A stretch of DNA of 64,000 nt from Ignavibacteriota bacterium (GCA_020437395.1 JAGQWJ010000003.1:2973-66972), one strand, 5' to 3'; numbered from the stretch's first letter, positions 2,782 through 26,147 are shown. Numbers and translations: made by a program. The notes: generated by a model not told the origin, from the letters alone.

Positions 2782-4476
2782 ATGCAAAAATTACTACAAA
2801 TAATCATAGCAATGATGATAGTAGGATATACATCACAAGCTGAAACTATCACAGTAACTGATAGTTGGATAAATGCTGGTGAGACTAAGACAATGACGGC
2901 AGATAACATCTACGTTCTAGATAGATTCGTCTTCGTTGAAGAAGGCGCGGAACTATGGATAGAACCAGGGACAGTAATACAAGGAAAACCAGGACAAGAA
3001 TCAAACGCATCAGCTCTAATCATCGCACGTGGTGGTAAAATATACGCAGAAGGAACTCCAGATAAACCAATCATCTTCACTTTCGAAGGAGATGATCCTT
3101 ATGATGATACTGACTTCCCAATGGAAGAAACAGGTCTTTGGGGTGGACTTATAATATTAGGAAATGCTCCTACTAATAACCCAGAGACTGTAAGAAATAT
3201 AGAAGGTATCCCAGAAAATAACCAATTAGGTAAATACGGTGGCAATGACCCAATGGATAATTCAGGTGTTGTACGTTACGTATCTATTCGCCACGGTGGT
3301 TCAGATATTGGTGAGGGTAACGAAATCAACGGTCTTACTATGGGTGCTGTTGGTGCTGGAACTACTATCGAGTATGTAGAAGTACTTTACAACAAAGATG
3401 ACGGTTTCGAATGGTTCGGTGGTAATGTTAATACTAGATACCTAGTATCAGCATTCAACGGCGATGATGCATTCGATTATGATGAAGGATTCAATGGTAA
3501 AGGACAATTTTGGTTAGCTTTACAAGCTTCAAACATTGGTAATCAAGGTGGAGAGCACGATGGTGGTAATAAGCCAGATGATTCTCAACCTTATGCTAGA
3601 CCTGTAATTTCAAACGTTACATATATTGGGTCTGGTGCTAACTCTGGTAACAATAAATCAGCTGGTCTAATACTTAGAGACAACGCTGGCGGTAAATACT
3701 ATAATTCTATTTTCACTGGTTTCACTACTTGGGGATTGAACATTGAGGATTTGGAAAATGGTGAAGATTCTGGAAATAGATTAACTACTGGCGACTTAAT
3801 GCTTAAGAACAATATCTGGTGGGATATAAATGGTAAAACCAATCCAAGTCTAACTGACATAGCTCCGGATGTTCCTGATACAGAATCAGGTGGTAAAGTG
3901 ATCAAAGGTTACTCTTTGCAACCTGCTCGTGATTATTTAGCAGATGCTAGCAATAACAACTGGATTACAGACCCAGGTTTAAACAAAATTGACAGAGGAC
4001 AAAATGGATTGTTCAATCCTACTCCTACTCCTAGTTCGGCAGCAGCAACTAGTAAGACTCTAAAACTAAATGACAGTTTTATCCAAGATGTCGATTATAT
4101 TGGTGCGTTCGGACTAGGTGATTACTGGTTAGCTAAATGGACCGCACTTTACTACTTTGGTGTTACTACTATGGATATATCGACTTCAATTTCTAACGCT
4201 AATAATAATAATTTCGATAATAATAGCTCAATCATAATATACCCTAATCCAGTTGAAAAGCAAACAACTTTAGAGTTTGAGTTAACTCAATCAACTAATG
4301 TAACAATGGATGTATATGATGCTACTGGTAACAAATTAGAAGGTTTAGTATCTAAGTATATGACTCAAGGAAATTGGGGATTAACTTGGACTCCTAATAA
4401 TTTAGTTTCAGGTGCATACTTCATACAAATGACAACTGACTACGGAACATTTACTCAGAAAGTAATAGTAAAATAA
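2782..4476 (+). CDS. Secreted protein with T9SS C-terminal sorting domain (function unknown, possibly beta-helix-like)
   Basis: N-terminal signal peptide. C-terminal IIIYPNPVEKQTTLEFEL...GAYFIQMTTDYGTFTQKVIVK matches the Por_Secre_tail pattern. Lies 39 nt downstream of the TonB-dependent receptor. Confidence 0.7.
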   Translation: MQKLLQIIIAMMIVGYTSQAETITVTDSWINAGETKTMTADNIYVLDRFVFVEEGAELWIEPGTVIQGKPGQESNASALIIARGGKIYAEGTPDKPIIFTFEGDDPYDDTDFPMEETGLWGGLIILGNAPTNNPETVRNIEGIPENNQLGKYGGNDPMDNSGVVRYVSIRHGGSDIGEGNEINGLTMGAVGAGTTIEYVEVLYNKDDGFEWFGGNVNTRYLVSAFNGDDAFDYDEGFNGKGQFWLALQASNIGNQGGEHDGGNKPDDSQPYARPVISNVTYIGSGANSGNNKSAGLILRDNAGGKYYNSIFTGFTTWGLNIEDLENGEDSGNRLTTGDLMLKNNIWWDINGKTNPSLTDIAPDVPDTESGGKVIKGYSLQPARDYLADASNNNWITDPGLNKIDRGQNGLFNPTPTPSSAAATSKTLKLNDSFIQDVDYIGAFGLGDYWLAKWTALYYFGVTTMDISTSISNANNNNFDNNSSIIIYPNPVEKQTTLEFELTQSTNVTMDVYDATGNKLEGLVSKYMTQGNWGLTWTPNNLVSGAYFIQMTTDYGTFTQKVIVK

Positions 4477-10249: not shown

Positions 10250-11254
10250 ATGAATTATTTAAAACCTTTGTTCATATTCAGTTTTCTTATTTCTTTTGGT
10301 TGTTCTGGAAGAGAAGAAGTAGATCAATCGTTTTATTATGAAGAACCTACAATTAGTCGTGAAGATTATATAAGAGATAGTTTATTGATCACACATATAA
10401 GTAACGAATATTTTAGGTTAGGTATAGATGGTTTTTACGTTAGTAACAAAAGAGAGTATGAAAGATTTTTAAAGGAAAATGATAAATCCTTAATATTCAG
10501 ATTTGTTCCAGTTAGAACCTTTTATAATGAAACAGCTACTAAACTATATTCCTATGTGATAATGGGGGTAGCTTTAGGTGATACTGCAAAATGGCCAGAA
10601 GATTTTGATCATTTCTCAGCTTATAATCTTATGGGTTTTAGAGAATCGAAATGTAATATTTGGAAACTATATCCATATTATAGAATAGTTCTTTTTGGAG
10701 CCCCAACTTTGGATACAATAATCCATGATTTGAATACCTTTTACTTTAGGGATTTGAAGAACTCTTTTTCAGAACTAAATCATAACCCAGATGGAAATAT
10801 GAAACAGTTAAAGTATAATCTGAATGATCCTGGATTTTGGGAAAATTATCCTGATTTAGTCTTAGGTACCACCTATGTCGATAGTTTATACGCATTTCAG
10901 TTTAATTCAAATAAAGCTTATGATGAAAATTTTGTTGAAAAAGGTTTTGACTATTATTTGGATCAAATTGATTTTGCTAAATATTATAAATATGCCAACT
11001 CAAATTTGAAACAAAGAAGTATAGAATGGCAGTTGTATCTATGGCGAAATAAATTACAAGATACTTCAATCACCTACGAACAGATTAGGTTCAAAAAAGA
11101 TAGTTTAAATCTTGAAATTATAAGAAAGTATATCAACCCCAATATATCTATGCAAGATGTTATTAATAAAGGTATGGACTATTATACTTATAAACCCAAA
11201 ATTGATTCTGTAATATATCCAGAGTATTTATTAAAAATGTATGAGTGTAAATGA
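10250..11254 (+). CDS. Putative cognate immunity lipoprotein of the Rhs CT toxin
   Basis: ATG lies 1 nt after the toxin stop. Lipoprotein signal MNYLKPLFIFSFLISFGCSG. Position is typical of Rhs immunity genes. No recognisable family. The ORF-track start at 10199 overlaps the toxin and is less likely. Confidence 0.55.
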   Translation: MNYLKPLFIFSFLISFGCSGREEVDQSFYYEEPTISREDYIRDSLLITHISNEYFRLGIDGFYVSNKREYERFLKENDKSLIFRFVPVRTFYNETATKLYSYVIMGVALGDTAKWPEDFDHFSAYNLMGFRESKCNIWKLYPYYRIVLFGAPTLDTIIHDLNTFYFRDLKNSFSELNHNPDGNMKQLKYNLNDPGFWENYPDLVLGTTYVDSLYAFQFNSNKAYDENFVEKGFDYYLDQIDFAKYYKYANSNLKQRSIEWQLYLWRNKLQDTSITYEQIRFKKDSLNLEIIRKYINPNISMQDVINKGMDYYTYKPKIDSVIYPEYLLKMYECK

Positions 11255-11264
11255 ATGCAATTAT

Positions 11265-11471
11265 GATCACCTAGGAAACGTACGTACGGTGATAGCTGAC
11301 TATAAAAACCCAGACCCGACCTATACTTCAAGTCCAATACAGTTTTGGAGATACTTTGCTGACGTAAAGAATATAAGCAATATGTACCCTTATGGTAAGT
11401 TGTACGGCACTAACGCCATCTACAACGCCGCAGAGGACTACCGCTATGGCTTCAATGGGATGGAGAAGGAG
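11265..11471 (+). pseudogene. Orphan Rhs core-end fragment, copy 2
   Basis: DHLGNVRTVIADYKNP...ISNMYPYGKLYGTNAIYNAAEDYRYGFNGMEKE aligns by eye with 9097-9297. Homology stops abruptly at GMEKE, where a GC-rich hairpin element begins. Confidence 0.8.
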
Positions 11472-11545
11472 CGATTCCCCTCTTTAAGCAACGCGAAAGA
11501 GGGGTGGATCACGCCTAAGGCGTGAGACGGGGTGTTCAATTATTA
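11472..11545. repeat. GC-rich hairpin element E1 (REP-like)
   Basis: Perfect 9-bp stem CCCCTCTTT (11477-11485) / AAAGAGGGG (11496-11504). Second hairpin TCACGCC-taa-GGCGTGA at 11509-11525. Homologous to 12121-12215. Confidence 0.7.
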
Positions 11546-11556
11546 AAATAAACAGT

Positions 11557-11946
11557 ATGAATAAATTCAAACAAAGAATATTTAATCTACCTTCAAACCC
11601 TCAACTAAAACAAAGAGCAAGAGAACTTCGTAAACAGGGCGTTTTATCAGAAGTACTTTTCTGGAATGAAGTTAAACGAAAGAAAATACTTGATCTAGAC
11701 TTCGATAGACAGAAAATAATAGGAAATTACATTGTTGATTTTTATATTAAAAAACTTGGGATTGTAATTGAGATAGATGGTGTAAGCCACAATGAAAAAT
11801 TGGAAGAAGACGAGATTAGAGACAACTATTTAAAAAGTCTTGGTTTGACAGTTATAAGATATTCTGATTTAGATGTAAAGCATAATCTGGATAATGTAAT
11901 CCAGGATTTAAAAAATCAGATAATAACAAATTTAGTGGATATGTAA
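11557..11946 (+). CDS. DUF559 (Vsr/PD-(D/E)xK-like endonuclease domain) protein
   Basis: ARELRKQGVLSEVLFWNEVKRKK...DFDRQKIIGNYIVDFYIKKLGIVIEIDGVSHN...RDNYLKSLGLTVIRYSDLDV fits the DUF559 pattern. Bracketed by a perfect 10-bp inverted repeat: GAGACGGGGT at 11524-11533 and ACCCCGTCTC at 11949-11958. Confidence 0.8.
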   Translation: MNKFKQRIFNLPSNPQLKQRARELRKQGVLSEVLFWNEVKRKKILDLDFDRQKIIGNYIVDFYIKKLGIVIEIDGVSHNEKLEEDEIRDNYLKSLGLTVIRYSDLDVKHNLDNVIQDLKNQIITNLVDM

Positions 11947-12003
11947 ATACCCCGTCTCCCGCTTATAGCGGGAGCCACCCCTTTTTTGGAAAAAGGGGAA
12001 TTT

Positions 12004-12120
12004 CACCAAATAGGAAACGTTAGAACAGTGATAGCTGACTATAAGAACATAAGCAATATGTACCCTTACGGTAAGTCGTACGGCACTAACGCCATCTACA
12101 ATGCCACGGACGATTACCGC
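12004..12120 (+). pseudogene. Orphan Rhs core-end fragment, copy 3 (internally deleted)
   Basis: H.IGNVRTVIADYKN then directly ISNMYPYGKSYGTNAIYNATDDYR. It lacks the roughly 19 codons present in copies 1 and 2. Followed by hairpin element E2. Confidence 0.75.
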
Positions 12121-12247
12121 CAATGGGAATTACCCTCTTTAAGCGTAGCGAAAGAGGGCTTGTCAAGCTGAAGGCATGAGTGGACTTCGAAGCAGGAAGG
12201 GGTCTTCAATATTAATAGTGGTTCAGAGACGTATGCAATACGTCTCT
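12121..12247. repeat. GC-rich hairpin element E2 plus GAGACG hairpin
   Basis: CCCTCTTT / AAAGAGGG hairpin at 12133-12158, homologous to E1. Perfect 10-bp stem AGAGACGTAT-gca-ATACGTCTCT at 12225-12247. Confidence 0.7.
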
Positions 12248-12283
12248 ACATATCAACAAAATTCTTTAAATTCAGTTCAAGTC

Positions 12284-12316
12284 AAAAAAAAGCTGCCCTT
12301 TTAAGAACAGCTTTTT
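12284..12316. terminator. Bidirectional intrinsic terminator (serves the stomatin operon on the minus strand)
   Basis: An A8 run, an AGCTG...CAGCT stem and a T5 run. Confidence 0.65.
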
Positions 12317-12343
12317 AATTTTTCACTATTTCATTTTCAAAGC

Positions 12344-13156
12344 CTAGCTCTTCGAATCGCCATAGTCTTTTATCTGAGCTTCTACTTTGCTAACATTTTC
12401 CGAATTAGTTTTGTTCATACCATCTATAAATGGTTTGAATAAATCGATTGGAATTGGGAATATAGTTGTCGAGTTGTTCTCAGTTGCTATATCACCTAAA
12501 GTTTGCAAGTAACGTAATTGAAGTGAAATTGGGAAATCTTGCATTTGCTTTGCTGCATCAGTTAGTTTCTGAGCCGCTTGGAACTCACCTTCTGCATTGA
12601 TTACTTTCGCACGTCTCTCTCTTTCCGCTTCGGCTTGTTTCGCCATAGCACGTTGCATTTCTAACGGTAAATCGACTTGTTTTACTTCTACTGCAGTAAC
12701 TTTGATACCCCAGTTTTCAGTCTCTTCATCTATTATAGTTTGTAGCTTTTCGTTTATTTTATCTCTTTCGGCCAGAACTTCGTCAAGCTCCGATTGACCG
12801 ATTATACTACGCAAAGTAGTTTGAGCTAATTGATTTGTAGCATATAAGTAGTTTTCTACTTCTATAACTGCTTTATCGGGAGCAACTACTTTGAAATAAA
12901 GTACTGCGTTCACTTTTAGTGATACATTATCGCGAGTGATTATGTCTTGTGATTCCACATCTAATACAACTGTACGCAAACTGATTTTCATTATCTTATC
13001 AATGAACGGAACTAATATGATTAGTCCGGGACCTTTCACCCCTTGCAGTTTACCAAGTCTAAAAATTACTCCTCTTTCATACTCATTGAGTATTTTGATC
13101 ATGGAGAAGAAAATAAAAGCTCCAAGAACTAGAATTACTACGAATGGAATACCCAT
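12344..13156 (-). CDS. SPFH/band-7 (stomatin-like) protein
   Basis: N-terminal TM helix. SPFH core ([30 protein letters not shown]). Coiled-coil [17 protein letters not shown]. Confidence 0.9.
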
Positions 13157-13186
13157 AATGACCTCTGATATAATTATTTAAAAATA

Positions 13187-14461
13187 CTATTCAACTTCTA
13201 AAGTAAGACCATCAACTGATTTGACTATTACCTTATCATTTTTCTGAAACGACTTACTCGATTTTGCTCGCCAAAGTTCGCCAGTTACTTTTACTTTACC
13301 CATAGTTTCAGGTGTAATAGCTGTAAATACGATTGCTTCTTTACCCACTAGTGTATTTACACCGGAGGCGACATTCTTTCTTTGAGATTTTAATGCAAGA
13401 GTTATAATACTAATAAAAAGTGCAGCTGTTACTAATGTAGCAACAATAATTATTTCTATTCCAATTTGCATAAAATCACCTGGTGAATCAATTAACATAA
13501 TAGAACCTAGAAGAAAAGAGACTATACCTCCTAAAGAAAGCATTCCATAGGATACAATCTTAACTTCTAGTATAAACAATACAATTGCAACTATCATAAG
13601 TGCTAGTCCAGCATAATTAACTGGTAACATTTGCAATGAGAAGCCCGCTAAAATAGCAGACATTACACCTATCACACCCGGGAATATAGCCCCTGGGTTA
13701 TATAGTTCTATCATTATACCATACATTGTAAGTAAAATGAATATATAAGCTATATTAGGGTCAGAAATGAAACTAAGTAAGCTCTCTTTCCAATCCTTGT
13801 CTCGAACTACTATTTTAGCACTTTTCGTATTTAACGTTTTTAGTCCTTTCGTTGTCTCTACTTGCATACCATGAATTGCCTTTATCAAAGCATTTCGATT
13901 TTTTGCGATTAGGTCTATCAGGTTGCTATCTAGAGCTTCCGTCTCAGAATAAGAGAGCGACTCACGAACCGTCAGCTCTGCATAATCTTGATTCTTTTTT
14001 CTTTTCTTTGCAATAGAACGTATAAGAGCGGCAGCGTCATTTGTCACTTTCTGAGTCATAACATCGGAGCTATCTCCTGACTCACCACCCATACCTACGG
14101 GGTGAGCAGCACCTATATTAGTCCCCGGAGCCATAGCTGCTATATTTGCTGAAAGAGTAATAAAGACCCCAGCTGAGCCAGCCCGAGCACCTCCAGGAGC
14201 TACATAAACCACAATAGGTACTTCCGATTCGAGAAATGTGCTCACAATATCCCTTGTAGCATCAAGCAAACCACCAGGTGTATTTAGCGTTATTACTACA
14301 GCTTCATATTCGCCTTCCTCAGCTTCTTGGACTATTGTAGCTATGTATTCCGCTGTGAAACTTCCTATTCCCTCGTCTATAGAGGCATATAGAATCTCAT
14401 TACTAGCGTCAGCTATGCCAAATGAGAATAAAAATAATATGGAAATCAGAATTGTTTTCAT
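13187..14461 (-). CDS. NfeD-family membrane-bound ClpP-class serine protease
   Basis: Signal peptide, ClpP-like domain (TPGGLLDATRDI, GGARAGSAGVFI), multi-TM middle region and a C-terminal NfeD OB-fold (GKVKVTGELWRAKS). Classic nfeD-stomatin gene pair. Confidence 0.85.
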   Translation of the reverse strand: MKTILISILFLFSFGIADASNEILYASIDEGIGSFTAEYIATIVQEAEEGEYEAVVITLNTPGGLLDATRDIVSTFLESEVPIVVYVAPGGARAGSAGVFITLSANIAAMAPGTNIGAAHPVGMGGESGDSSDVMTQKVTNDAAALIRSIAKKRKKNQDYAELTVRESLSYSETEALDSNLIDLIAKNRNALIKAIHGMQVETTKGLKTLNTKSAKIVVRDKDWKESLLSFISDPNIAYIFILLTMYGIMIELYNPGAIFPGVIGVMSAILAGFSLQMLPVNYAGLALMIVAIVLFILEVKIVSYGMLSLGGIVSFLLGSIMLIDSPGDFMQIGIEIIIVATLVTAALFISIITLALKSQRKNVASGVNTLVGKEAIVFTAITPETMGKVKVTGELWRAKSSKSFQKNDKVIVKSVDGLTLEVE

Positions 14462-14514
14462 CGTTTAAATATAAGCAAAGTAATAGAATAAACAAGTTTT
14501 AATATAAACTTTGG

Positions 14515-15648
14515 CTATTTAGACCACCAACGACTTTGAGGGAATGCATCTAGTCTATTGATGAATATAGATTCTCCTATCATTGGAGTTGCAATAGGCA
14601 TCTCCATCTCCTTAGCTTTCTTTGTAACACGTTCTATTGGATCAGTCCAAGTATGGAATGCTAACTTGAACGCGGCCCAGTGTATAGGCATTATTAACTC
14701 TGCTTTGAGGTCTATACCAGCTTGTACTGTTTCCTCAGGCATCATGTGGATTTGCTTCCATTGCTCATTGTATTGCCCACATTCTATCATAGCAAAGTCA
14801 AATGGTCCGTACTTCTCCCCTATTTCTTTGAAATGAGTACTGTACCCTGAATCCCCACTAAAATAAATAGAATAATCATTAGATTTTACGACCCACGAAG
14901 CCCATAGTGTAGCTGCATTGTCACCAATTCCTCTACCTGAGAAGTGCTGAGCAGGAGTACAGGCGAATATAAACTCACCAATTTTAACTTCATCCCACCA
15001 ATCGAGTTCTTTTACTTTACTCTGATCTATTCCCCAAGCTATTAGATGATTGCCAACGCCAAGAGGAGTGTAGAATTGCTTTACTTTAGATTTAAGCTTG
15101 GAAATAGAGCCGTAATCAAGATGATCATAATGGTCGTGTGATAATATTACGAAATCGATAAAAGGTAATTTCTCTATTTCAAGAGGTAAAGATTTGCTAA
15201 ATCTGCTATTACCGAGCCAAGGGTGAGGAGCCGGAACATCACCAAACATCGGGTCAATTAGTATATTTTTTCCGTCTACCTGAAGCAGGAATGTCGAATG
15301 GCCGAACCAAATTAGTCGAGGAATATCCGATTCATAGACAGCTATCTCTGTAGAGTCGGAATGCACTACTGGAATAGATATATCAGGTACAGTATTGGGT
15401 TGTGTTCTGAAGAACTTAAATATCATCTCGATATACTGCGAGGCCGTGAAACTAAGTTTCACTTCTTCTTTGTTAACGAATTTGTCTATTCTGTAGTTAG
15501 GAGATTTTGAGTATTCTTTAATTTTTTCAGCAGATGCTTTACCTCCAAATTCCGGACTAAGGTTCACAAAGAGCACACCGACTATCACTAGGAGTACTAC
15601 AATAGTACCAATAATTAAACCTATCATTTTTAATATTCGTATTATCAT
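14515..15648 (-). CDS. MBL-fold metallo-hydrolase (NAPE-PLD-like), membrane anchored
   Basis: N-terminal TM helix. Metal-binding motif SHDHYDHLD. Confidence 0.75.
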   Translation of the reverse strand: MIIRILKMIGLIIGTIVVLLVIVGVLFVNLSPEFGGKASAEKIKEYSKSPNYRIDKFVNKEEVKLSFTASQYIEMIFKFFRTQPNTVPDISIPVVHSDSTEIAVYESDIPRLIWFGHSTFLLQVDGKNILIDPMFGDVPAPHPWLGNSRFSKSLPLEIEKLPFIDFVILSHDHYDHLDYGSISKLKSKVKQFYTPLGVGNHLIAWGIDQSKVKELDWWDEVKIGEFIFACTPAQHFSGRGIGDNAATLWASWVVKSNDYSIYFSGDSGYSTHFKEIGEKYGPFDFAMIECGQYNEQWKQIHMMPEETVQAGIDLKAELIMPIHWAAFKLAFHTWTDPIERVTKKAKEMEMPIATPMIGESIFINRLDAFPQSRWWSK

Positions 15649-15752
15649 TATTGAATTATAAAATTGAGAATATACATTATCAATAATGTCTAAACGCTTA
15701 TCAGCAATAAAGTATTGCTGAAATGAGGATTAAAAAATTATGTGAAGTTAAG

Positions 15753-16139
15753 TTAAGTCTTACTTTTCTTCACAATAACCCACAAAAGAAATACAAAAAG
15801 TAATGTAATAATAGAAAAGAATTTCTCGAATAGCGTTTCAGCAAAGAGATTGCCAATCGTATTCAACCCAAAGAATACTATAAAAATCCACAAAACAATA
15901 TTAACAATTCGTTCAGTGAATATTTCCTTGATAAACTTCCCCTTTATAAGTAGTGCTATGTATAAAATTAGATTCAGCAATATAGAAAATGTTTCAAATA
16001 CATACATCTCACTATCATTTGTCAGCCGACCACCCCAAGTTATATCATAAGGGATAATCTTGAGTAAAATACAAAAGTGGAAAATCAGAATTGCAGTTAA
16101 AAACCCAAGCATTATTTTAATAGCTGTTTGTTTATTCAT
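15753..16139 (-). CDS. Small four-helix integral membrane protein (unknown family); last gene of the nuclease-like operon
   Basis: 128 aa with four hydrophobic segments. ATG lies only 6 nt after the stop of the upstream gene. Confidence 0.6.
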   Translation of the reverse strand: MNKQTAIKIMLGFLTAILIFHFCILLKIIPYDITWGGRLTNDSEMYVFETFSILLNLILYIALLIKGKFIKEIFTERIVNIVLWIFIVFFGLNTIGNLFAETLFEKFFSIITLLFVFLLWVIVKKSKT

Positions 16140-16145
16140 TGTGTT

Positions 16146-16715
16146 TTATATTAGAATTAGAGGTTTATGTAAAACTGTGTATCTTTCTCTATTACTTGAT
16201 CTTGAATTAAATATTATTTCTTCAAGCGATTGACTTGCTTTTACTTCGAGTCTAAGAATATCGATGAGGTTATTCCATTCTTCATTCGTGGCATCAAAAC
16301 TTTTCCAAGATAACATAAAATCAAATTGTTGACCATGCCTAAATAATCTTCCTGGTAAAGGGTCATTCTTCATATTCCCAATAAGTATTCCATAACGCAA
16401 GTAAGGATGTACATTCTTATGTGTTTGAGCTTTATTACTATATGTTATAGAATCATGAGTACTTATCCTACTAATTTTAGCTTCTATTACAACTCTTGGT
16501 GTCCAATTCGTAACTGTCGTTAATTCATAAACTAAAATATCAGTTTCATATTTGATCAAGTGTTCTTGAATTGGTTTACCTTTCTCATCATACTCCAACA
16601 CTTCACTAGAATATGGTAATTTTAAAGACTCACCTACTCTTAGATTTTCATCAAATTCTCTTAGAGCATTCTCAATTTTTTGACATATACTCTTTACCCA
16701 TTCTCTTTCGTTCAT
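16146..16715 (-). CDS. PD-(D/E)xK nuclease-fold protein (unknown family)
   Basis: YETDILVYE...(19 aa)...VVIEAKIS gives a D...ExK signature. The preferred start is the ATG at 16715-16713, which forms an ATGA overlap with the upstream stop. The ORF-track start at 16772 would overlap by 61 nt. Confidence 0.55.
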   Translation of the reverse strand: MNEREWVKSICQKIENALREFDENLRVGESLKLPYSSEVLEYDEKGKPIQEHLIKYETDILVYELTTVTNWTPRVVIEAKISRISTHDSITYSNKAQTHKNVHPYLRYGILIGNMKNDPLPGRLFRHGQQFDFMLSWKSFDATNEEWNNLIDILRLEVKASQSLEEIIFNSRSSNRERYTVLHKPLILI

Positions 16716-17389
16716 TCTTCTTTCTTCTTTATCTTCTTCAATATTTCTCTTTGAATATCTATTTCTATCCATTCTCCATTTGAATTTGCTTTATAAAACT
16801 TTGCAGATTGTGGTGTTGGGTTTTTCTTAGTTTTCTTTATCAATTCAAACGCATCATCTAGGGTTTTTCCAATCACTTTTTTATCTATATCACCATTTAA
16901 CATCAAATCAAGATTTGTATTTTCATCAATTGAAACTTTTAGCCCCATATTTATAGGTGTTGTAATTGTTGAATTAAGAGTCGTTTTATTTAACTTTTTA
17001 GATTTCGTTTTCTTCCAAATTAATATTGTAGTACTCTTTATAACATCCCAAATTGCATTGACTACCAACCCGCTAATTAATGTTTGAGTAATATTCTCAT
17101 TAATAAATAAGGCCACTGTCAAAGTAAAATCCTCTAGATTTGCATAAGGAATTCCAGTTTTATCAAAACTACTTAGTTCAAACCCTTCACTTGATAAAAT
17201 AGTTTGAATGTTTTCAATATCCTCTTTATTTAATAGACCTTCATAATAATCTAAGTGAAGTACATTTTCTCCAGACTTCACTGTAGAGTATTTGTCACTC
17301 ATAAATCTTGCTTGTTCATCTATCATTTTTTCATCCCAAGAAGGAAAATTTGACTCGAATTGATTTTTAAAATATTCATAGTTATACAT
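16712..17389 (-). CDS. Hypothetical protein, 225 aa, no recognisable domain
   Basis: Long ORF 20 nt downstream of the Mrr-like gene. Amphipathic/hydrophobic central segment (LISGLVVNAIWDVIKSTTILIW) and a Lys-rich C-terminus. Confidence 0.5.
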   Translation of the reverse strand: MYNYEYFKNQFESNFPSWDEKMIDEQARFMSDKYSTVKSGENVLHLDYYEGLLNKEDIENIQTILSSEGFELSSFDKTGIPYANLEDFTLTVALFINENITQTLISGLVVNAIWDVIKSTTILIWKKTKSKKLNKTTLNSTITTPINMGLKVSIDENTNLDLMLNGDIDKKVIGKTLDDAFELIKKTKKNPTPQSAKFYKANSNGEWIEIDIQREILKKIKKKEE

Positions 17390-17409
17390 AATTACCTTTA
17401 CATTTCTTG

Positions 17410-18342
17410 TTAATAGAAATCTTGTAGCCCTAAATGCTCTAGTTCTTTTATATATTCTACTTCTTGTGTTGTCTGTTCCCTTGATATGAATGGAAATGTA
17501 TTCAATATTAACTTTCTTATTTTTATATATGCATCATCATCGATGTTGTGGTTTTGTCCCTGCATAAAATTCATCCAAGCCATTATTCTTTTTATGTAAC
17601 CTATAGGTGAAGTATAATCTGAAATATCTATCCAACTATCAATAAACTGCTCTCTTTGTGTATATCTATTCTTTAATATTCTGTCATGTGCTCCTTTACA
17701 ACTAAAGTAAGCTTTTGAGTATGTGGTAACACCAGCAACATCGTTACTTTTCTTCAACATAACAAATATACCACTTTTATTCTCAAGTAAATCCTTACTA
17801 CAATAATCACAATTGATAGAAGATGATTCAGAAAATAACTTTATAGGTTTTGGGTTTTCCTTTATGTAATCAGCATAGCTTTTGGGGAAATAACGGCTAG
17901 CTAGTTTTAGCCCTTGAGGACTTTCTAATAATACTTTTTCAATTTGTTCTCTGTCAAAGGTTTGAGTTTCAATCTTTGATTTCAAACCTTGAATTATACC
18001 TCCTAATCCTGTAGAGGGTAGAGTTGAATAAAAGCCAATAAACCCTTCGCAGTTATAAGTCGTTAATCTGTCTTGAATATTAGGTTCATCAGTATCTGAA
18101 ACGGATTTTCCACTAAACGCTTTATGTTTGCAACTTACTAACCACTTCAACTTAGTGGTACCAGATAAACCATGTCTTAATTCTTGAACTATCAAGTCTT
18201 TCTTACCATCTGCTCCTCTATCAGGTTGCTGAATAATTTCATAACCAAGAACTTCTAAAAAATCTCTTGCAAAAAGTTCAAAGGTGTCTTGATACCCATT
18301 CGCTTTATTTGCTTGTGGAATCTCCTTAAAATCTAATATCAT
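17410..18342 (-). CDS. Mrr_cat-like restriction endonuclease N-terminal domain protein with Cys/His-containing C-terminal domain
   Basis: FELFARDFLEVLGYEIIQQPDRGADGKKDLIVQ...KWLVSCKHK resembles the Mrr catalytic-domain pattern (GxDGGxD ... QxK). The C-terminal half has C178-x2-C181 and C215-x3-H219. Confidence 0.6.
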   Translation of the reverse strand: MILDFKEIPQANKANGYQDTFELFARDFLEVLGYEIIQQPDRGADGKKDLIVQELRHGLSGTTKLKWLVSCKHKAFSGKSVSDTDEPNIQDRLTTYNCEGFIGFYSTLPSTGLGGIIQGLKSKIETQTFDREQIEKVLLESPQGLKLASRYFPKSYADYIKENPKPIKLFSESSSINCDYCSKDLLENKSGIFVMLKKSNDVAGVTTYSKAYFSCKGAHDRILKNRYTQREQFIDSWIDISDYTSPIGYIKRIMAWMNFMQGQNHNIDDDAYIKIRKLILNTFPFISREQTTQEVEYIKELEHLGLQDFY

Positions 18343-18370
18343 ATTTTATTCCTAAAACTTCTACTTCCAA

Positions 18371-18403
18371 ACAAAAATCCCCATTTCTTACGAAACAGGG
18401 ATT
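18371..18403 (-). terminator. Weak candidate terminator after nrdJ
   Basis: On the minus strand, an AATCCC...GGGATT stem (6 bp, 16-nt loop) is followed by TTTTTGTTT. Confidence 0.3.
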
Positions 18404-18421
18404 GTAATTATCATCTAATTG

Positions 18422-21400
18422 TTATGAGCAGCCGCTTGTGGTTCCGCAATCTTCGCAGACGGTACAGCTACCGTTTCGCTTCACCCGAGAGGAGCTACAA
18501 GTGCTACACATCTCGCCAGTATAACCCAAGCTACGTGCCTCGTCTAGCTCGGCTTGTTTCTTAGCTCTACCACCGTCATTAGTCGTTACAGCTTTTAGCT
18601 GCACTAACTGAGGTGCGATTATGTTTTTAGCGATGTCTTTTTCGTCTGGTTGCGAACCGCCTTTATCATCTATATCGTTCGATCTAGATTCTGGTGATTG
18701 CAACTCTGGTGTATCACCACCATTAGGATTGTTCTTGTCTTCATCTACTGCAAATACGTGAACTAGGTCATTTCTTTGTAAGTAGTCGTAGCCAAGAGTA
18801 CGGAACACGTAGTCAAGGATTGAAGTTGAGTTCTTGATTGCTTCGTGTCCTTGTACCATACCTGCTGGCTCGAATCTAGTGAATGTGAACGTATCTACTA
18901 GCTCTTCTAGAGGCACTCCATATTGCAATGCCTTAGATGCCAAGATAGCGAAACTGTTCAACATACCTCGGTATGCAGCGCCCTCTTTGTACATATCAAT
19001 GAAGATTTCGCCTAATTGACCGTCTTCGTATTCGCCAGTTCTTAGGAATATTTTGTGTCCACCTACAGTCGCCTCACGGATAATTCCTTTACGACGCTTA
19101 GGCAACTTGTATCTTTCTGATTTTCTTACAGATTGGCCTTCTATCTGCTCGTGTATTTCTTTAGCACCTAGAGTCTCATCAAGTGTATTTTCGTCACCTA
19201 ATAGTACTGTTTCTTCCAATCCATCATAATTAGCTGAGTTCAACGGTTGTGATAGTTTAGAGCCATCACGATATAGAGCGATTGCTTTCAACATCAGTTT
19301 CCATGACTTCATGTGAACTTCGCTTATGTTGTTCACCGTTGCGCTTCCAGACATATTTACTGTCTTAGATATAGCACCTGAGATAAACGGTTGTGCCGCA
19401 GCCATTATACGAACGTGAGCCATATAAGCTATAGAGCGTTCACCTTTTTTACCACAAGTATTAGCACAATCAAAGATAGGTAGATGTTCATCTTTTAGAT
19501 GCGGTGCACCTTCTATCATCATAGTACCACAAACATAATCGTTAGCTTTCTCAATTTGTTCTGGAGTAAAGCCAAGAGCAGCTAATAGATTAAGTGATGA
19601 GTCAGCTATTTCTTCGTCAGAAAGCCCTAACTTCATCAAGAAATCTTCACCCAAAGTCCATTTGTTGAAGGCAAATTTGATATCAAATACATCATCTAAC
19701 TGATCTTCTACTAATTTGATTTTTTCTTCTGTAAATCCTTTTTCTAGTAAAGTGGCTTTGTTTATTTCTGGACAACCAGCGAATGTACCGTGCCCTTTAC
19801 TATATTTAGTTATTTCTTCTATTTCAGTTTCAGTGTAGCCAAGTTTCACTAATGCTTTACGCACAGATTGGTTTACTATCTTGAAGTAACCACCACCAGC
19901 TAATTTTTTATATTTAACTATAGCAAAGTCAGGTTCGATACCAGTTGTATCACAATCCATTACAAGACCGATAGTTCCAGTAGGAGCTATTACTGTTACT
20001 TGTGCGTTGCGATAACCATAGTGCTCACCCATTTCTAGAGCATTATCCCAAACTTCACGTGCTGCAGTTAGCATATCTTGAGGACAGAATCGAGTATCAA
20101 TACCTTGTGGTCTGATAGTCAATCCCTCGTACTCAGAAGTTTTAGCATTATATGCGGCTCTTCTGTGATTTCGAATTACTCTTAACATGTGCTTTTCGTT
20201 TAGCTTATACTCTGGGAACGAACCAAGTTCTTTTGCCATTTCAGCAGAAGTAGCATAAGCTTGACCACATAATATAGAAGTCAGAGCACCAGTCCAAGCA
20301 AGAGCTTCATTCGAATCATAAGGAATGCCATTTACCATTAGTAAAGAACCTATGTTAGCATAGCCAAGTCCTAAAGTTCTGAATTTGTAACTTAGGTCCG
20401 CAACTCTCTTAGAAGGGAATTGAGCCATTAGTACAGAAATTTCTAATATGACAGTCCAGATACGAGCAGCGTGTTTGTAAGCTTCAATATCAAACTCACT
20501 AGTTTCTTCGTTGTAAAACTTCATTAAGTTCAAACTAGCTAAGTTACAAGCTGTGTCATCCAAGAACATATATTCTGAACAAGGATTAGATGCATTGATA
20601 CGACCAGACTCAGGGCAAGTGTGCCATTCGTTTATAGTTGTGTCATATTGCAATCCTGGGTCAGCAGACTTCCAAGAAGCTAAGTTGATTTTATTCCAAA
20701 GGTCACGTGCTCTTACGCGACGTACGTGCATCTCGTCTGTACGCCATTTTAGCTCCCACTCTTCGTCAGCTTCAACAGCTTTCATAAATTCATTAGTAAC
20801 ACGTACAGTATTATTAGCATTCTGACCGCTTATTGTATTGTAAGCCTCACTTTCGTAGTGAGTGTCGAAGGCTTCTGTTTCTAATGAAGTGAACCCTTGC
20901 TTTACTAGTTCTAAAACTCTATCAATATAATTCAAAGGAACGCCACGATGTGCCGCTCGTTTAATTAATTCTTTAAGATTCTTATTTTGCTCAATTTCCG
21001 CACTATTAGTAATTGCTTCTTCCATTATAGCTTCTAAGAATACTTTATTAATCTTAGAGCCAGTAACTAATGCAGCAACTTTTTCTTCTTCTTTAGCTTT
21101 CCAATCAATAAATTGCTCTACATCTGGATGATCTATATCCACAACTACCATTTTTGCTGCACGCCTTGTCGTACCACCAGATTTTATAGCTCCGGCAGCT
21201 CTATCAAATATTTTTAAGAAGCTCATCATTCCAGAAGATACCCCCCCTCCAGATAACGGCTCTTCGCTACTACGTAAGCGAGAGAAATTAGATCCAGTAC
21301 CACTTCCAAATTTGAATATACGTGCTTCACGAGTAATCAAATCGAAGATACCGCCTTCGTTTAGCATATCATCACTAACCGATTGGATGAAGCATGCGTG

Positions 21401-21940
21401 AGGTTGAGGTCTAGTATAAGCGTCTTTGGACTTTTCTACCTTCCCATTTTCAGGGTTAACGTAGTAATGACCTTGTTTGCTTCCTGTAATGCCGTAGGCA
21501 AAGTTCAAACCAGTGTTAAACCACTGAGGTGAATTAGGTGCAGCAGCTTGGTTCAATAGCATATATGCTGCTTCTTCGTAGAATATTTCAGCATCTTTTG
21601 TAGTATCGAAGTAATTATACTGTTCGCCCCAATGTCTCCAAGTACCAGCTAATCTATGAACTACTTGCTTAACGGAGTTCTCTGAACCCGTAACTTGCTC
21701 GCCATTTTCGTCCTTTATTTTCTTACCTTTTTCATCAAACTGAGGTACACCAGCTTTTCTGAAATACTTTTGTGCCAATATATCGGTTGCCATTTGTGAC
21801 CAACCAATTGGAACTTCTACATTTTTCATATCGAAAACAGTAGAACCATCTGGGTTCTTTATTGTCGATGAGCGGTGCGTATATTTGAATAGATCATATA
21901 CGTTCACGTCATCTTTGGTAAAATGTCGAGAGAATTTCAT
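18422..21940 (-). CDS. nrdJ: Adenosylcobalamin-dependent (class II) ribonucleotide reductase
   Basis: 1172 aa. Class II RNR hallmarks include [21 protein letters not shown]. Cys-rich C-terminal tail [28 protein letters not shown]. Confidence 0.9.
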
Positions 21941-22285
21941 AGTGGGGTACCTATATTAGTGATAAATCATTGAAAACACTTAGCATAAATACAAGAAATG
22001 AATTTGGATGAGTGGGCAATACTGACAAAATAGTGGCTACTCAGCCAAATTAATTTTTTATAAAGACACAACTAAGTGGATACAATTAAAATGCTTTTTT
22101 TTATTCATTACAAGGTGTAATTATCAACACCAATCAATGATAGGACTTTAAAATTATCCACATTACTTAGTCCATATTTTTTCCTATTTGGAATGTAGTT
22201 TATGCTGCTTTTCTAAAATAAAAAATAAATTTGAAATAATCAAACGTAAGATGTTAACTTATATTGCGTTTAGAGATTTTAAATT

Positions 22286-22891
22286 CTAGAAAACATACTG
22301 AAAGAAACCACTAAAGACAGAAAAATCAATCAGAGCTGTAATTACTAATCCAGCTATTGCTCCCCAAAGATGGGCATTGTGATTTATATTATCTTGTGAT
22401 TTTTTATCTGCATACCAACAATAAACCAAATAAAGTATTGCGAATATTGGTGCTGGAATTGGAATCGGAAAGAACATAATATAGAGACTCATCTCAGGAT
22501 CATAGAGTATAAAGCTAAAAAGCAACCCTGATATTGCGCCAGAAGCACCAAGAGCAGCATAGCGAGGGTTATTTTTATTACGAAGATACGTAACCACATC
22601 TGCTAGTACCATAGAGCCCAAATAAACAATGAGGAATTGCAGCCCACCAACATAACTCTCATATTTGAAAGCAAAGAAGTAGAAAGTCATCATATTAAAA
22701 CCTAGATGAAATAAATCGGCGTGGATAAACCCACTAGTTATAAATCTGTACCATTCCTTGTTCTCATTCACAGCAACTGGGATTAACATCAGCTTATTAT
22801 AAAGAGATTGTTTTCTGTACATCACATAAAGCGAAAGAGCTATAGTAAAAACAAATATAGCAGTTGAAAATGGGATTAGACTAATATCCAT
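22286..22891 (-). CDS. Rhomboid-family intramembrane serine protease
   Basis: Multi-TM protein with HADLFHLGFNM, GASGAISGL (GxSG) and a downstream catalytic His region (NHNAHLWGAIAG). Confidence 0.85.
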   Translation of the reverse strand: MDISLIPFSTAIFVFTIALSLYVMYRKQSLYNKLMLIPVAVNENKEWYRFITSGFIHADLFHLGFNMMTFYFFAFKYESYVGGLQFLIVYLGSMVLADVVTYLRNKNNPRYAALGASGAISGLLFSFILYDPEMSLYIMFFPIPIPAPIFAILYLVYCWYADKKSQDNINHNAHLWGAIAGLVITALIDFSVFSGFFQYVF

Positions 22892-22893
22892 AT

Positions 22894-23496
22894 CTATGTT
22901 TTTTTATTTTGGTTCCAAGTTTTGTAATTATTCTTTTGAGTTTTTCTATTAGGTGGAATTTCTCTAAGTGGTTCACAAGGTCTAAGAGTCGCACGAAGTT
23001 CATTAGGTAATTTCTGATAAAGTTTAGTCCCCTCCGTTTTCCAATCTAACATTTGATCCGAAACATCTTTGACAATTTTTGCTGGATTACCCACTACTAT
23101 TTTTCTATCAGGAACTATCATATCTGCTGGAACAAAACAAAGTGCTCCTATTATACACCCATCACCTATTTTAGCGTTATCCATTACTACGGCATTCATA
23201 CCAACTAAGGTATTTCTTCCAATTTCACCCCCATGGATAATTGCTCCGTGACCGATGTGTGCTGATTCTCTAAGCAAGACAGTAACTCCAGGGAACATGT
23301 GTATAGTGCAGTTCTCTTGTACGTTGCAACCATCTTCTATTACTATACCACCCCAATCTCCCCTAATAGCCGCACCTGGGCCTATATAAACATCTTTACC
23401 AATTATTACATTTCCCGTAACTGTCGCATTTGGATGAATGTAAGCAGATTCATCTATAACCGGTTTGAAACCATCAAATTCAAATATGTTTGCCAT
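22894..23496 (-). CDS. Hexapeptide-repeat (left-handed beta-helix) protein, PaaY/CaiE/gamma-carbonic-anhydrase-like
   Basis: Repeated [LIV]G-x4 hexapeptides. The N-terminus MANIFEFDGFKPVIDESAYIHPNATVTGNVIIG is typical of this family. Confidence 0.8.
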   Translation of the reverse strand: MANIFEFDGFKPVIDESAYIHPNATVTGNVIIGKDVYIGPGAAIRGDWGGIVIEDGCNVQENCTIHMFPGVTVLLRESAHIGHGAIIHGGEIGRNTLVGMNAVVMDNAKIGDGCIIGALCFVPADMIVPDRKIVVGNPAKIVKDVSDQMLDWKTEGTKLYQKLPNELRATLRPCEPLREIPPNRKTQKNNYKTWNQNKKT

Positions 23497-24731
23497 TATC
23501 TTGGTATTATTACTGTTACTTTTGTTCCTTTTCCTAACTCACTTTCTATTTCCATACTTCCATCTAACAAATCTAAATTATGTTTTACTATTGATAATCC
23601 AAGACCTGTACCTTGGACTAAACTGGAAATACTATCTTCTCTTTTGAATGCTTCAGTGAGATTGCTAATATTAACTTTGTCAATTCCAATTCCTTTATCT
23701 TTGACCGTTATCTTACATTGATAACCGTTTGCTTTCAATTTCAGTTTTATTTCGGGCGTATTGTGCGAGTATTTTACTGCATTCGAAAGTAAATTATTAA
23801 CTATTTGAATACACAAAATCTTGTCTGAATCCACGAAAATACTTTCCTTTGGTAAATTTAATTTTACAACTCTATTGTAAACCTTGTTCGTTTTCACCAA
23901 ATCTTTTATTTCTTTCGCTATGTCAAATACTTTTTTTGATGCCTTAACTTCTCCATGTTCCAATTTACCTATGTTAAGTACATTCTCCATTAAACCAGTC
24001 ATAGTATCGATAGATTTACTAATTTTATCCAAATTTTTGAGGAACTTTTCGTCGTCTCTTCTTTCATAAGACTTCTCTAACAAGAAAGTAGCAGATTGGA
24101 TTATGGTCAAAGGTGTTCTTAATTCGTGCGAGACCATTGAAATAAATTTTGTCTTAAGTTTATTGAGCTCCATTTCCTTTGCTAAAGATTTTTCTATTTG
24201 GTTTTTGACATTAAATAACTCTTTCTCAGACTCTATTCTTCTTTGATTCTCAATTTGTAAATCATTATTAATTTTTTCTAATTCAATAGATCTCGTATCA
24301 ATTTGTTCTTCAAGTTTAGAAACTATAGTTCTAATCTCATTTTTATCAGTTTGGTTTACAGTTACATCTTCAACAATAACCGTTAAGCCATATATAGTGC
24401 CATCGTCATCTTTAAGTGGATAGTAAGAATCTTTATAAAAAGTTCTTTCTAAATCCTCATCTCCATATTCCTCGATTAAAGTAAAATATTCTCCTGAGAG
24501 TGCACGATGAAAATTATAAAATGCTTTCTTTCTATCTTTCTCAGAATTAATATAATCCATCATACAGTGATTCAACTTTATATCGACCCCCCATATATTT
24601 TTCATTATAAAAAAGTGAGGTTTATTAAAATAGATATAATTGAAGTTTTTGTCTAATGCAAAAACAACAAGATTTGGATGACAATCAAGAATATTAGATA
24701 GTATTAATGTATTATTTGAACTATTCTCCAT
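23496..24731 (-). CDS. PAS-domain sensor histidine kinase (no adjacent response regulator)
   Basis: H-box SHELRTPL. N and G boxes (NLLSNAVKYS, DKGIGI, GTGLGLSIV). ATG at 24731 is preferred over the upstream GTG at 24767. Confidence 0.85.
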   Translation of the reverse strand: MENSSNNTLILSNILDCHPNLVVFALDKNFNYIYFNKPHFFIMKNIWGVDIKLNHCMMDYINSEKDRKKAFYNFHRALSGEYFTLIEEYGDEDLERTFYKDSYYPLKDDDGTIYGLTVIVEDVTVNQTDKNEIRTIVSKLEEQIDTRSIELEKINNDLQIENQRRIESEKELFNVKNQIEKSLAKEMELNKLKTKFISMVSHELRTPLTIIQSATFLLEKSYERRDDEKFLKNLDKISKSIDTMTGLMENVLNIGKLEHGEVKASKKVFDIAKEIKDLVKTNKVYNRVVKLNLPKESIFVDSDKILCIQIVNNLLSNAVKYSHNTPEIKLKLKANGYQCKITVKDKGIGIDKVNISNLTEAFKREDSISSLVQGTGLGLSIVKHNLDLLDGSMEIESELGKGTKVTVIIPR

Positions 24732-26030: not shown

Positions 26031-26147
26031 ATACGGGGCTGATTGTAGTTGTGGTTTGCGATTAGCTACAGATAGTTAGCCACTCTTTGGCTATAATCGG
26101 ATGTTGAATTATTTCTAACTAGCCCCAGCGGGGCTCTATATCTGTAG
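26031..26147. repeat. Cluster of GC-rich nested palindromes (REP-like element or structured RNA)
   Basis: Hairpins TAGCC-actcttt-GGCTA (26077-26093) and AGCCCC-agc-GGGGCT (26121-26135). Outer inverted repeat CTACAGATA (26066-26074) / TATCTGTAG (26139-26147). GGGGCT also occurs at 26035-26040. Confidence 0.5.

Follow-up and report, generated by a model that had tools for sequence, protein, structure and literature searches.

The 64,000-nucleotide stretch of DNA from Ignavibacteriota bacterium analysed here (GCA_020437395.1 JAGQWJ010000003.1:2973-66972; called the window below, with all coordinates referring to its full 64 kb) carries, at positions 15,753 to 18,342, four co-directional minus-strand genes, A, B, C and D, which lie between the class II ribonucleotide reductase gene nrdJ and a cluster encoding a metallo-beta-lactamase (MBL)-fold hydrolase, NfeD and stomatin. 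A first-pass annotation had read these genes as one AT-rich operon encoding a defence-type system of nuclease, partner and small membrane protein. The analysis revealed that A, B, C and D are not one evolutionary unit; as a novel four-gene system the locus is not real, and what it offers instead are two uncharacterised families of candidate single-gene nucleases, A and C, placed in a variable slot. The explanation that we consider probable is a gene-turnover hotspot behind nrdJ, holding three unrelated and separately mobile genes, two of which are candidate single-gene defence nucleases, next to a core gene, D.

The limits of the slot were obtained from related genomes, of which L012, L018 and L020 encode NrdJ proteins 95–96% identical to that of the window; the closest NrdJ proteins come from metagenome-assembled genomes labelled Ignavibacteriota, Chlorobiota or Candidatus Kapaibacterium. 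In blastn against the sister genome L020, homology runs through nrdJ (18422..21940, minus strand, by open reading frame (ORF) and Pfam calls), the conserved upstream anchor, and through its terminator, ends at position 18368 and restarts at 16142, 3 nt before the ATG of D, leaving a variable insert of 2,225 bp (16143..18367, minus strand) that carries A, B and C. On the left, the slot is bounded by the intrinsic terminator hairpin of nrdJ (AATCCCTGTTTC...GAAATGGGGATT with a T-run; 18376..18403, minus strand, by terminator scan), which is invariant across five related genomes, with similarity stopping directly after the T-run. Past the insert, synteny with L020 continues through D, the MBL hydrolase, NfeD and stomatin, with amino acid identities of 70%, 86%, 89% and 96%, respectively, the last three genes forming the conserved anchor cluster downstream of D (12344..15648, minus strand, ORFs and Pfam, with stomatin as Band_7). 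Because D is syntenic with this cluster in L020, a genome that has no A, B or C, it is a core gene of the MBL/NfeD/stomatin block, lying outside the insert. Both flanking groups had been named correctly in the first-pass annotation, and its suggestion of horizontal acquisition was borne out, the segment being acquired and variable among the sister genomes.

The slot spans ~1–3 kb and holds different cargo in each related genome. In L020 it contains an IS200-like Y1 transposase flanked by GC-rich palindromes resembling repetitive extragenic palindromic (REP) elements, and in L018 four unrelated genes (488, 112, 180 and 254 aa, the 112-aa protein having a weak DUF4325/STAS-like match) together with a transposase of the same family as that of L020 (Pfam Y1_Tnp, 98 bits). 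The order in L012 is nrdJ-A'-C-(126-aa lipoprotein gene)-D, with the start of D present after the extra lipoprotein gene; the NrdJ of this genome is 95% identical to that of the window, yet no B stands between A' and C. The junction between nrdJ and the MBL hydrolase, whose comparison among related genomes the first-pass annotation had proposed, is variable, and the four-gene grouping did not survive the comparison, with D being core and B missing from L012. The native sequence 5′ of D (AATCACRAATATCTAACAATG) is conserved in L012 and L020 and has been lost in the window, where the end of C abuts D, so the 6-nt spacing between C and D is a secondary juxtaposition.

Several observations concern the ends of the inserts. 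The 3.2-kb insert of L018 bears at its ends two ~90% identical copies of the 42-nt nrdJ terminator region (13540-13580 and 16793-16834; compare 18370-18410 in the window), which looks like the duplication of an attachment site and suggests the terminator as insertion target. The Y1 transposase of L020 (L020:13574-14628) and L018 (L018:16850-17600) is a 149-aa protein resembling REP-associated tyrosine transposases (RAYT) and lies amid REP-like palindromes such as GCCCCAGCGGGGC. One REP-like match occurs in the window at 26122-26147, outside the A–D region, and the insert of the window itself contains neither a RAYT transposase nor REP elements. A repeat scan found no terminal repeats and no target-site duplication around this insert, and an 8-nt repeat seen in L012 was dismissed as chance similarity at ATG contexts.

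Co-occurrence was assessed over ~190 fetched loci in all, by tblastn and by profile hidden Markov models built per family; the further loci comprised 90 of the C family (from genomes, 80 metagenome contigs and viral contigs), 11 of the A family and three of the B family. The full set of A, B and C was confined to the window's own population, represented by identical contigs from other samples; the arrangement is present there in at least six other assemblies, of which three span all three genes. Outside this population, A and C occur together in L012 only. Neither A nor B was detected at any of the 90 other C loci, neither B nor C at the 11 other A loci, and neither A nor C at the three other B loci, and D was absent from the 90 C loci, the three B loci and the seven A loci searched for it. 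Genes that make up a unit should recur as neighbours in unrelated genomes, and across the ~190 loci these did not; nor were they gained and lost jointly, D staying in L020 without A, B and C, and B being missing from L012. The single system of nuclease, partner and small membrane protein fails here, on the very outcome that the first-pass annotation had named as refuting it, namely that the genes do not co-occur elsewhere.

The layout of the locus agrees with the earlier description in the number, direction and spacing of the genes: A and B are separated by 20 nt, B and C overlap by 4 nt (ATGA), and C and D are separated by 6 nt. ORF calls place A at 17410..18342 (310 aa), B at 16712..17389 (225 aa), C at 16146..16715 (189 aa from the ATGA start) and D at 15753..16139 (128 aa), all on the minus strand. 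The public gene call on the contig makes C a protein of 208 aa (the longest ORF), overlapping B by 61 nt (16712-16772); this is too long, because the ~750 homologue clusters are ~189 aa in length and align from the ATGA methionine, so the length of about 189 aa proposed at first is the correct one. For B the public call gives 204 aa, and the length of 225 aa fits three aligned close homologues (225–227 aa), with lengths varying across the family. The G+C content of the insert carrying A to C is 30.2%, compared with a window mean of 34.0% and 39.9% in nrdJ; among same-size windows it ranks at the 5.5th percentile. The insert is thus below the mean, as claimed, but its AT-richness is modest and its composition only mildly unusual, and the contrast first given (22–35% versus 43%) was exaggerated.

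No terminator-like site was found between any two of the genes A to D, a weak site within A being the only hit of the terminator scan inside the block. ORF calls and Pfam revealed no methyltransferase domain in A–D, as stated in the first-pass annotation, or in the flanking genes, so that the adjacent cognate methyltransferase that defines type II restriction-modification (R-M) accompanies neither A nor C at this locus. An integration site in a tRNA or other non-coding RNA gene was ruled out, since there are no tRNA genes across the whole 64-kb window and no Rfam matches (E ≤ 0.1) in 11000-24000; the latter also means that the 345-nt region upstream of nrdJ contains no cobalamin riboswitch. 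attC sites measure ~55–140 nt, and a reading of the genes as integron cassettes was rejected, as the gaps of 20, -4 and 6 nt are too short for them and the flanks contain no integrase. The repeat scan found no attC-type hairpin either, the arms of the inverted repeats being hundreds of nucleotides apart save in two short palindromes within coding sequence.

Homologues of A form 1,338 clusters at 90% identity, mostly 310–320 aa in length, from Bacteroidota and also from Proteobacteria. The resemblance of A to Mrr_cat, noticed from the start, is marginal in Pfam (PF04471, 22.7 bits against a gathering cut-off of 21, profile positions 7–62 of 115), with the same hit precomputed for many homologues, and is supported by fold search. 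An AlphaFold2 (AF2) model of A (mean predicted local distance difference test (pLDDT) score of 87) retrieved, with Foldseek, the catalytic domains of MspJI (E 1.5e-4) and AspBHI (3.1e-4), then EcoT38I, AF1548 and Rpb5 N-terminal domains, and residues ~1–160 are predicted from this model to be an Mrr-type PD-(D/E)xK nuclease domain. Residues ~165–310 make up a C-terminal domain with a CxxC...C...H pattern, for which no relative was found in Pfam, NCBIfam, PDB-sequence or Foldseek searches; none of the known modified-base readers looked for (Mrr_N/winged helix, SRA, PUA, YTH and similar domains) is fused to A. The family alignment shows P40-D41, D45, D49, E54, S70-C71-K72, C178, C181 and C215 to be invariant, and the fourth putative metal ligand is histidine in the window's lineage and cysteine in most homologues.

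The two domains of A differ in their rate of divergence. Family-wide mean pairwise identity is 69% in the N-terminal domain and 47% in the C-terminal domain, and between the window and L012 the amino acid identities are ~86% and ~40%, respectively. At the nucleotide level, identity to L012 falls from 0.77-0.91 to 0.56-0.70 near nt 450 of A, with the flanking nrdJ and C at ~0.85; the drop covers 17410-17890 of the window, the 3′ half of A, compared with L012:7390-7887. Because identity falls at this point and nrdJ and C stay at ~85%, the replaced block seems to extend from mid-A through B to the start codon of C.

Homologues of A were located in a wide range of mobile and defence-related contexts. 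In the P2-like prophage L104, a homologue has gpA (Phage_GPA, 426 bits) on one side and the portal/terminase genes on the other, placing it at the gpA-gpQ position, which is an anti-phage hotspot of P2-like phages (Rousset et al. 2022, PMC9122126). Besides the A homologue, this hotspot (L104:7995-11271) contains a gene with an ASCH domain and a pair of genes for a HipA-like kinase and a HIRAN-domain protein, the pair corresponding to the PADLOC candidates PDC-M03A/B (E 1e-121 and 3e-93). A second P2-like element carries a homologue at an accessory site near the baseplate genes, and the homologue in L105 lies within a type I R-M operon, between hsdS and hsdR. Others are one of the five annotated genes on a 4.9-kb MOBQ Acinetobacter plasmid; part of an integrase island with Vsr, a NotI-like restriction enzyme and an adjacent C5 methyltransferase (L191); directly downstream of a DACNV-domain gene in Pedobacter, with resolvase and AbiEi_2 genes ~6.5 kb away; beside an insertion sequence; or in a region with a SUKH-type immunity gene ~7 kb upstream. 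No methyltransferase is annotated beside A in L009, L011, L012, L189 or L192, and none occurs among the checked neighbours in L102 and L104. These contexts mark A as a self-sufficient, mobile and defence-associated gene, which may be a solitary restriction or defence nuclease of a type IV-like kind.

Gene C has homologues in 754 clusters at 90% identity, ~189 aa in length, and no curated family in Pfam or NCBIfam. Across 36 sequences 55 positions are invariant, including the proposed D59...E78-x-K80 signature, and a long block at residues 86–137. The AF2 model (pLDDT 86, predicted TM-score (pTM) 0.81) displays an alpha-beta-beta-beta-alpha-beta PD-(D/E)xK core; its top Foldseek matches in the PDB are the BbvCI subunits (E 6e-4, TM-scores of 0.42-0.50, 12–17% identity), followed lower down by Mus81-Eme1, BsmI, MspJI and BamHI chains amid unrelated folds, and a library of viral structures gave only weak matches (TM-score ~0.5) to uncharacterised phage PD-(D/E)xK-like proteins. 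From the model and the motif, C is predicted to be a canonical PD-(D/E)xK nuclease of an uncharacterised, unusually conserved and usually solitary family. The structure searches thereby uphold the early view that A and C are two unrelated PD-(D/E)xK nuclease-like proteins.

The neighbours of C are nearly always unrelated between loci, and no methyltransferase-like family recurs beside it among the 90 C loci (five families checked). Its contexts include an integrase-C-AbiH arrangement in a prophage (AbiH, 119 bits), accessory sites in a phage lysis module, and a position beside an integrase and near GmrSD and HsdR-like genes. The Desulforapulum autotrophicum plasmid pHRM2a (L190; NC_012109.1, 44.4-59.0 kb) has two copies of a C homologue in an accessory region, within a tandem duplication whose unit joins C to a 279-aa hypothetical gene, a serine recombinase and a toxin-antitoxin pair of the RelE/ParE type. 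The idea that a small DUF7672-like ORF is conserved upstream of C was discarded, as the ORFs found there share no homology between loci.

In a distant sublineage (50–54% identity), C is part of long arrays of small co-directional genes with an order that changes from contig to contig, resembling a cassette-like or mosaic defence island. The arrays lie on metagenome contigs L144, L154, L157, L159, L160, L161, L162, L167, L170 and L182, with genes of 150–350 aa and orders such as Mrr-C-N276-N204, C-N253-N354-N276-N204 and Mrr-C-N253. In five of these loci, a canonical Mrr gene (Mrr_cat, 80 bits) is situated 63-71 nt upstream of C on the same strand, and downstream of C, 9–11 arrays encode a 276-aa protein that weakly resembles restriction enzymes, along with its 204-aa partner. 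L182 also contains two near-perfect hairpins with arms of 29–34 nt (1209-1291 and 3114-3197), each in an intergenic gap.

A word-indexed search with B returned only two distant homologues, and an exhaustive profile search retrieved 274 representatives (E ≤ 1e-3), divergent proteins of ~200 aa, so that B is not an orphan. The family has no relative in Pfam or the PDB, and hydropathy revealed no transmembrane segment in B. The three homologues with recoverable context are all solitary, one of them on an integrase-bearing element; a linkage between B and C that L188 appeared to offer was rejected, as the 190-aa ORF after the B homologue is no relative of C. B is a lineage-specific passenger between A and C, from an uncharacterised family. 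The hydropathy profile of D contains four hydrophobic segments, in agreement with the four transmembrane segments proposed for it.

None of the four proteins could be assigned to a named system. PADLOC, Pfam, NCBIfam and PHROGs scans of A–D yielded nothing beyond the marginal Mrr_cat match of A, and searches of solved-structure sequences with the A, B and C family profiles gave nothing meaningful. Distant homologues of A and C drew weak PADLOC hits (PDC-S02, E 0.004; PDC-M58A, 3.9e-5; NsnC, 1.1e-3). The statement that the gene combination could not be mapped onto a named system thus stands, A and C being uncharacterised nuclease-fold families; of the defence-type reading, the part that stands is that relatives of A and C lie in defence and mobile-element contexts, and the part that does not is that A to D form one system.

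The hotspot explanation can be laid out as a sequence of proposed events and functions. The slot, which extends from the nrdJ terminator to the start of the D/MBL hydrolase/NfeD/stomatin block, would be a site of gene turnover, and B may have entered between A and C in the window's lineage, along with the swap of the C-terminal domain of A. The Mrr-type domain of A would cut non-self DNA, either modified or otherwise marked, in a type IV-like manner that needs no methyltransferase, with the C-terminal Cys/His domain, which is probably zinc-binding, acting as a DNA or target sensor. Nuclease-plus-sensor fusions that lack a methyltransferase are generally read as modification-dependent (PMC11037411), and because no methyltransferase is present here, A would presumably be modification-dependent or otherwise spare its own DNA. 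C would be an independent single-gene defence or exclusion nuclease, a compact Mg2+-dependent endonuclease. Since the insert abuts the start codon of D, D is probably co-transcribed with it, while lying outside any acquired module. What the analysis shows directly is the architecture of the locus, the limits of the slot, the lack of co-occurrence outside this lineage, the nuclease folds and motifs, and the surroundings of the homologues; the defence role, the modification dependence, the sensor function of the C-terminal domain of A and the co-transcription of D are inferences.

Several results weigh against this explanation and have to be set beside it. The tight spacing and the ATGA overlap of B and C fit co-expression, and functional interplay in this genome is possible. 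PADLOC-DB v2.0.0 gave zero matches at E ≤ 1 for A to D, so the search suggested in the first-pass annotation lent no support to a defence function. A has an invariant serine (S70-C71-K72) where the (D/E/Q)xK motif of Mrr has an acidic residue or glutamine, which makes its catalytic competence uncertain; an acidic residue may be recruited from elsewhere. In L191 an A homologue stands next to a C5 methyltransferase and in L105 one lies inside a type I R-M operon, neighbours that a broadly methylation-dependent A should not tolerate, unless its specificity is a different one. With a mean column identity of 64%, unusual for fast-evolving defence nucleases, and 53.5% identity to the Desulforapulum plasmid copy, the conservation of C may instead reflect a substrate that is itself conserved, cellular or structural.

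Three other explanations were weighed against the turnover hotspot. That all four genes, or A to C at the least, work together as one multi-component defence system is highly improbable, and the co-occurrence and synteny tests have already largely refuted it: the co-directional genes with their gaps of 20, -4 and 6 nt, the single weak terminator-like site lying inside A and not between genes, and the identical arrangement in six or more further assemblies of this population are what such a system would offer, but L020, which has none of A–C, keeps D beside the MBL, NfeD and stomatin genes, L012 lacks B between A' and C, the A, B and C families never come together in ~104 loci outside the lineage, and plasmids and prophages carry relatives of A and of C singly. 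In a gene-turnover slot, tight spacing and overlapping stop and start codons can be secondary, and they are no proof of shared function. It is also improbable that A and C form a facultative pair, for instance a sensor with its effector or a heteromeric nickase like BbvCI, with B as an intruder. BbvCI, whose subunits act as a heterodimer, is the best structural match of C, A and C are adjacent in two genomes with otherwise different cargo, and a canonical Mrr precedes the distant C homologue by 63-71 nt in the five metagenomic loci. However, ~84 of 90 C loci lack a neighbour of the Mrr type, and C is absent from all 11 other A loci; the five Mrr proteins are 76–100% identical and four of the five contig identifiers belong to the Ga0315... 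series, so that only one or two events may be involved. Chance adjacency is plausible besides, Mrr-like genes being common in defence islands, and in the window an inserted gene now separates A from C.

The remaining explanation dispenses with defence, taking A and C as selfish or addiction genes, repair or recombination nucleases, or inactive remnants in a recombination-prone intergenic site. The lack of PADLOC matches, the housekeeping-like conservation of C, the serine at the acidic position of the A motif, the plasmid homologue of C beside a resolvase and a toxin-antitoxin pair, which is compatible with plasmid maintenance, and the entry of a RAYT-like transposase and a lipoprotein gene into the slot would all suit it. 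Full-length ORFs and many invariant residues are nevertheless kept over hundreds of clusters, and for this reason the A and C families appear to be under purifying selection; moreover, the defence contexts are repeated (the P2 gpA-gpQ hotspot, the type I R-M operon, AbiH), and the distribution is patchy and non-syntenic, unlike that of repair genes. We therefore regard the absence of any defence role as unlikely, and retain the turnover hotspot with its two candidate single-gene nucleases.

The supposed novel four-gene system is thus replaced by a simpler, testable picture, and attention shifts to the A and C families, two large and unannotated groups of nucleases with ~1,300 and ~750 clusters, respectively, which have no PADLOC or PHROGs coverage and both recur in known defence hotspots. 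If A or C protects against phages or plasmids alone, it would add compact one-gene systems to the catalogue of defence, and the C-terminal domain of A might be a new sensor domain. A bolder combination of these ideas is offered only tentatively, as we give it a lesser chance than the turnover hotspot itself: A and C would be new and widespread single-gene anti-phage or anti-plasmid nucleases, A would be type IV-like, with a swappable Cys/His domain that forms a new class of sensor for DNA modifications or targets, and the replacement of this domain between near-identical genomes would result from an arms race; C, an unusually conserved stand-alone PD-(D/E)xK effector, could also team with Mrr-type nucleases, of the A type here and canonical Mrr elsewhere, and the nrdJ terminator would be a dedicated attachment site for cargo of this kind in Kapaibacteria-like bacteria.

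Compared with stand-alone PD-(D/E)xK restriction nucleases, C has a similar core with invariant D59 and E78-x-K80, and its top PDB matches are restriction endonucleases; it differs in that the TM-scores reach just 0.42-0.50 at 12–17% identity, no methyltransferase partner accompanies it, it belongs to no curated family, and its conservation far exceeds that of typical type II enzymes. A is closest to the type IV enzymes of the Mrr/MspJI type, as it passes the Mrr_cat threshold, has its nearest structural matches in the MspJI and AspBHI catalytic domains, combines a nuclease and a second domain in one polypeptide, and stands without a cognate methyltransferase here and in most contexts, in restriction and defence neighbourhoods. 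Unlike these enzymes, A has the reversed domain order with the nuclease at the N-terminus, a Cys/His domain in place of the Mrr_N winged helix or an SRA-like reader, and an S-C-K motif instead of (Q/E)-x-K, and its dependence on modification is only presumed.

Epona, a single-gene defence cassette that fuses Mrr_cat with a holin-like transmembrane domain in the chromosomal integrons of Vibrio (bioRxiv 10.1101/2024.07.02.601686), is likewise a compact one-gene Mrr_cat fusion carried as mobile cargo; A differs from it by having no transmembrane or holin domain, and by its setting, where the gaps are too small for attC and no integrase is nearby. With respect to the defence hotspots described previously (PMC9122126), the slot behind nrdJ is chromosomal and beside housekeeping genes rather than on a phage or satellite, part of its cargo is non-defence (the IS200-like transposase with REP-like palindromes and the lipoprotein gene), and the defence function of A and C is presumed. 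It resembles them in being small, in lying between conserved anchors with cargo that differs per genome, and in sharing a gene family with them, a homologue of A being found inside the P2 gpA-gpQ hotspot.

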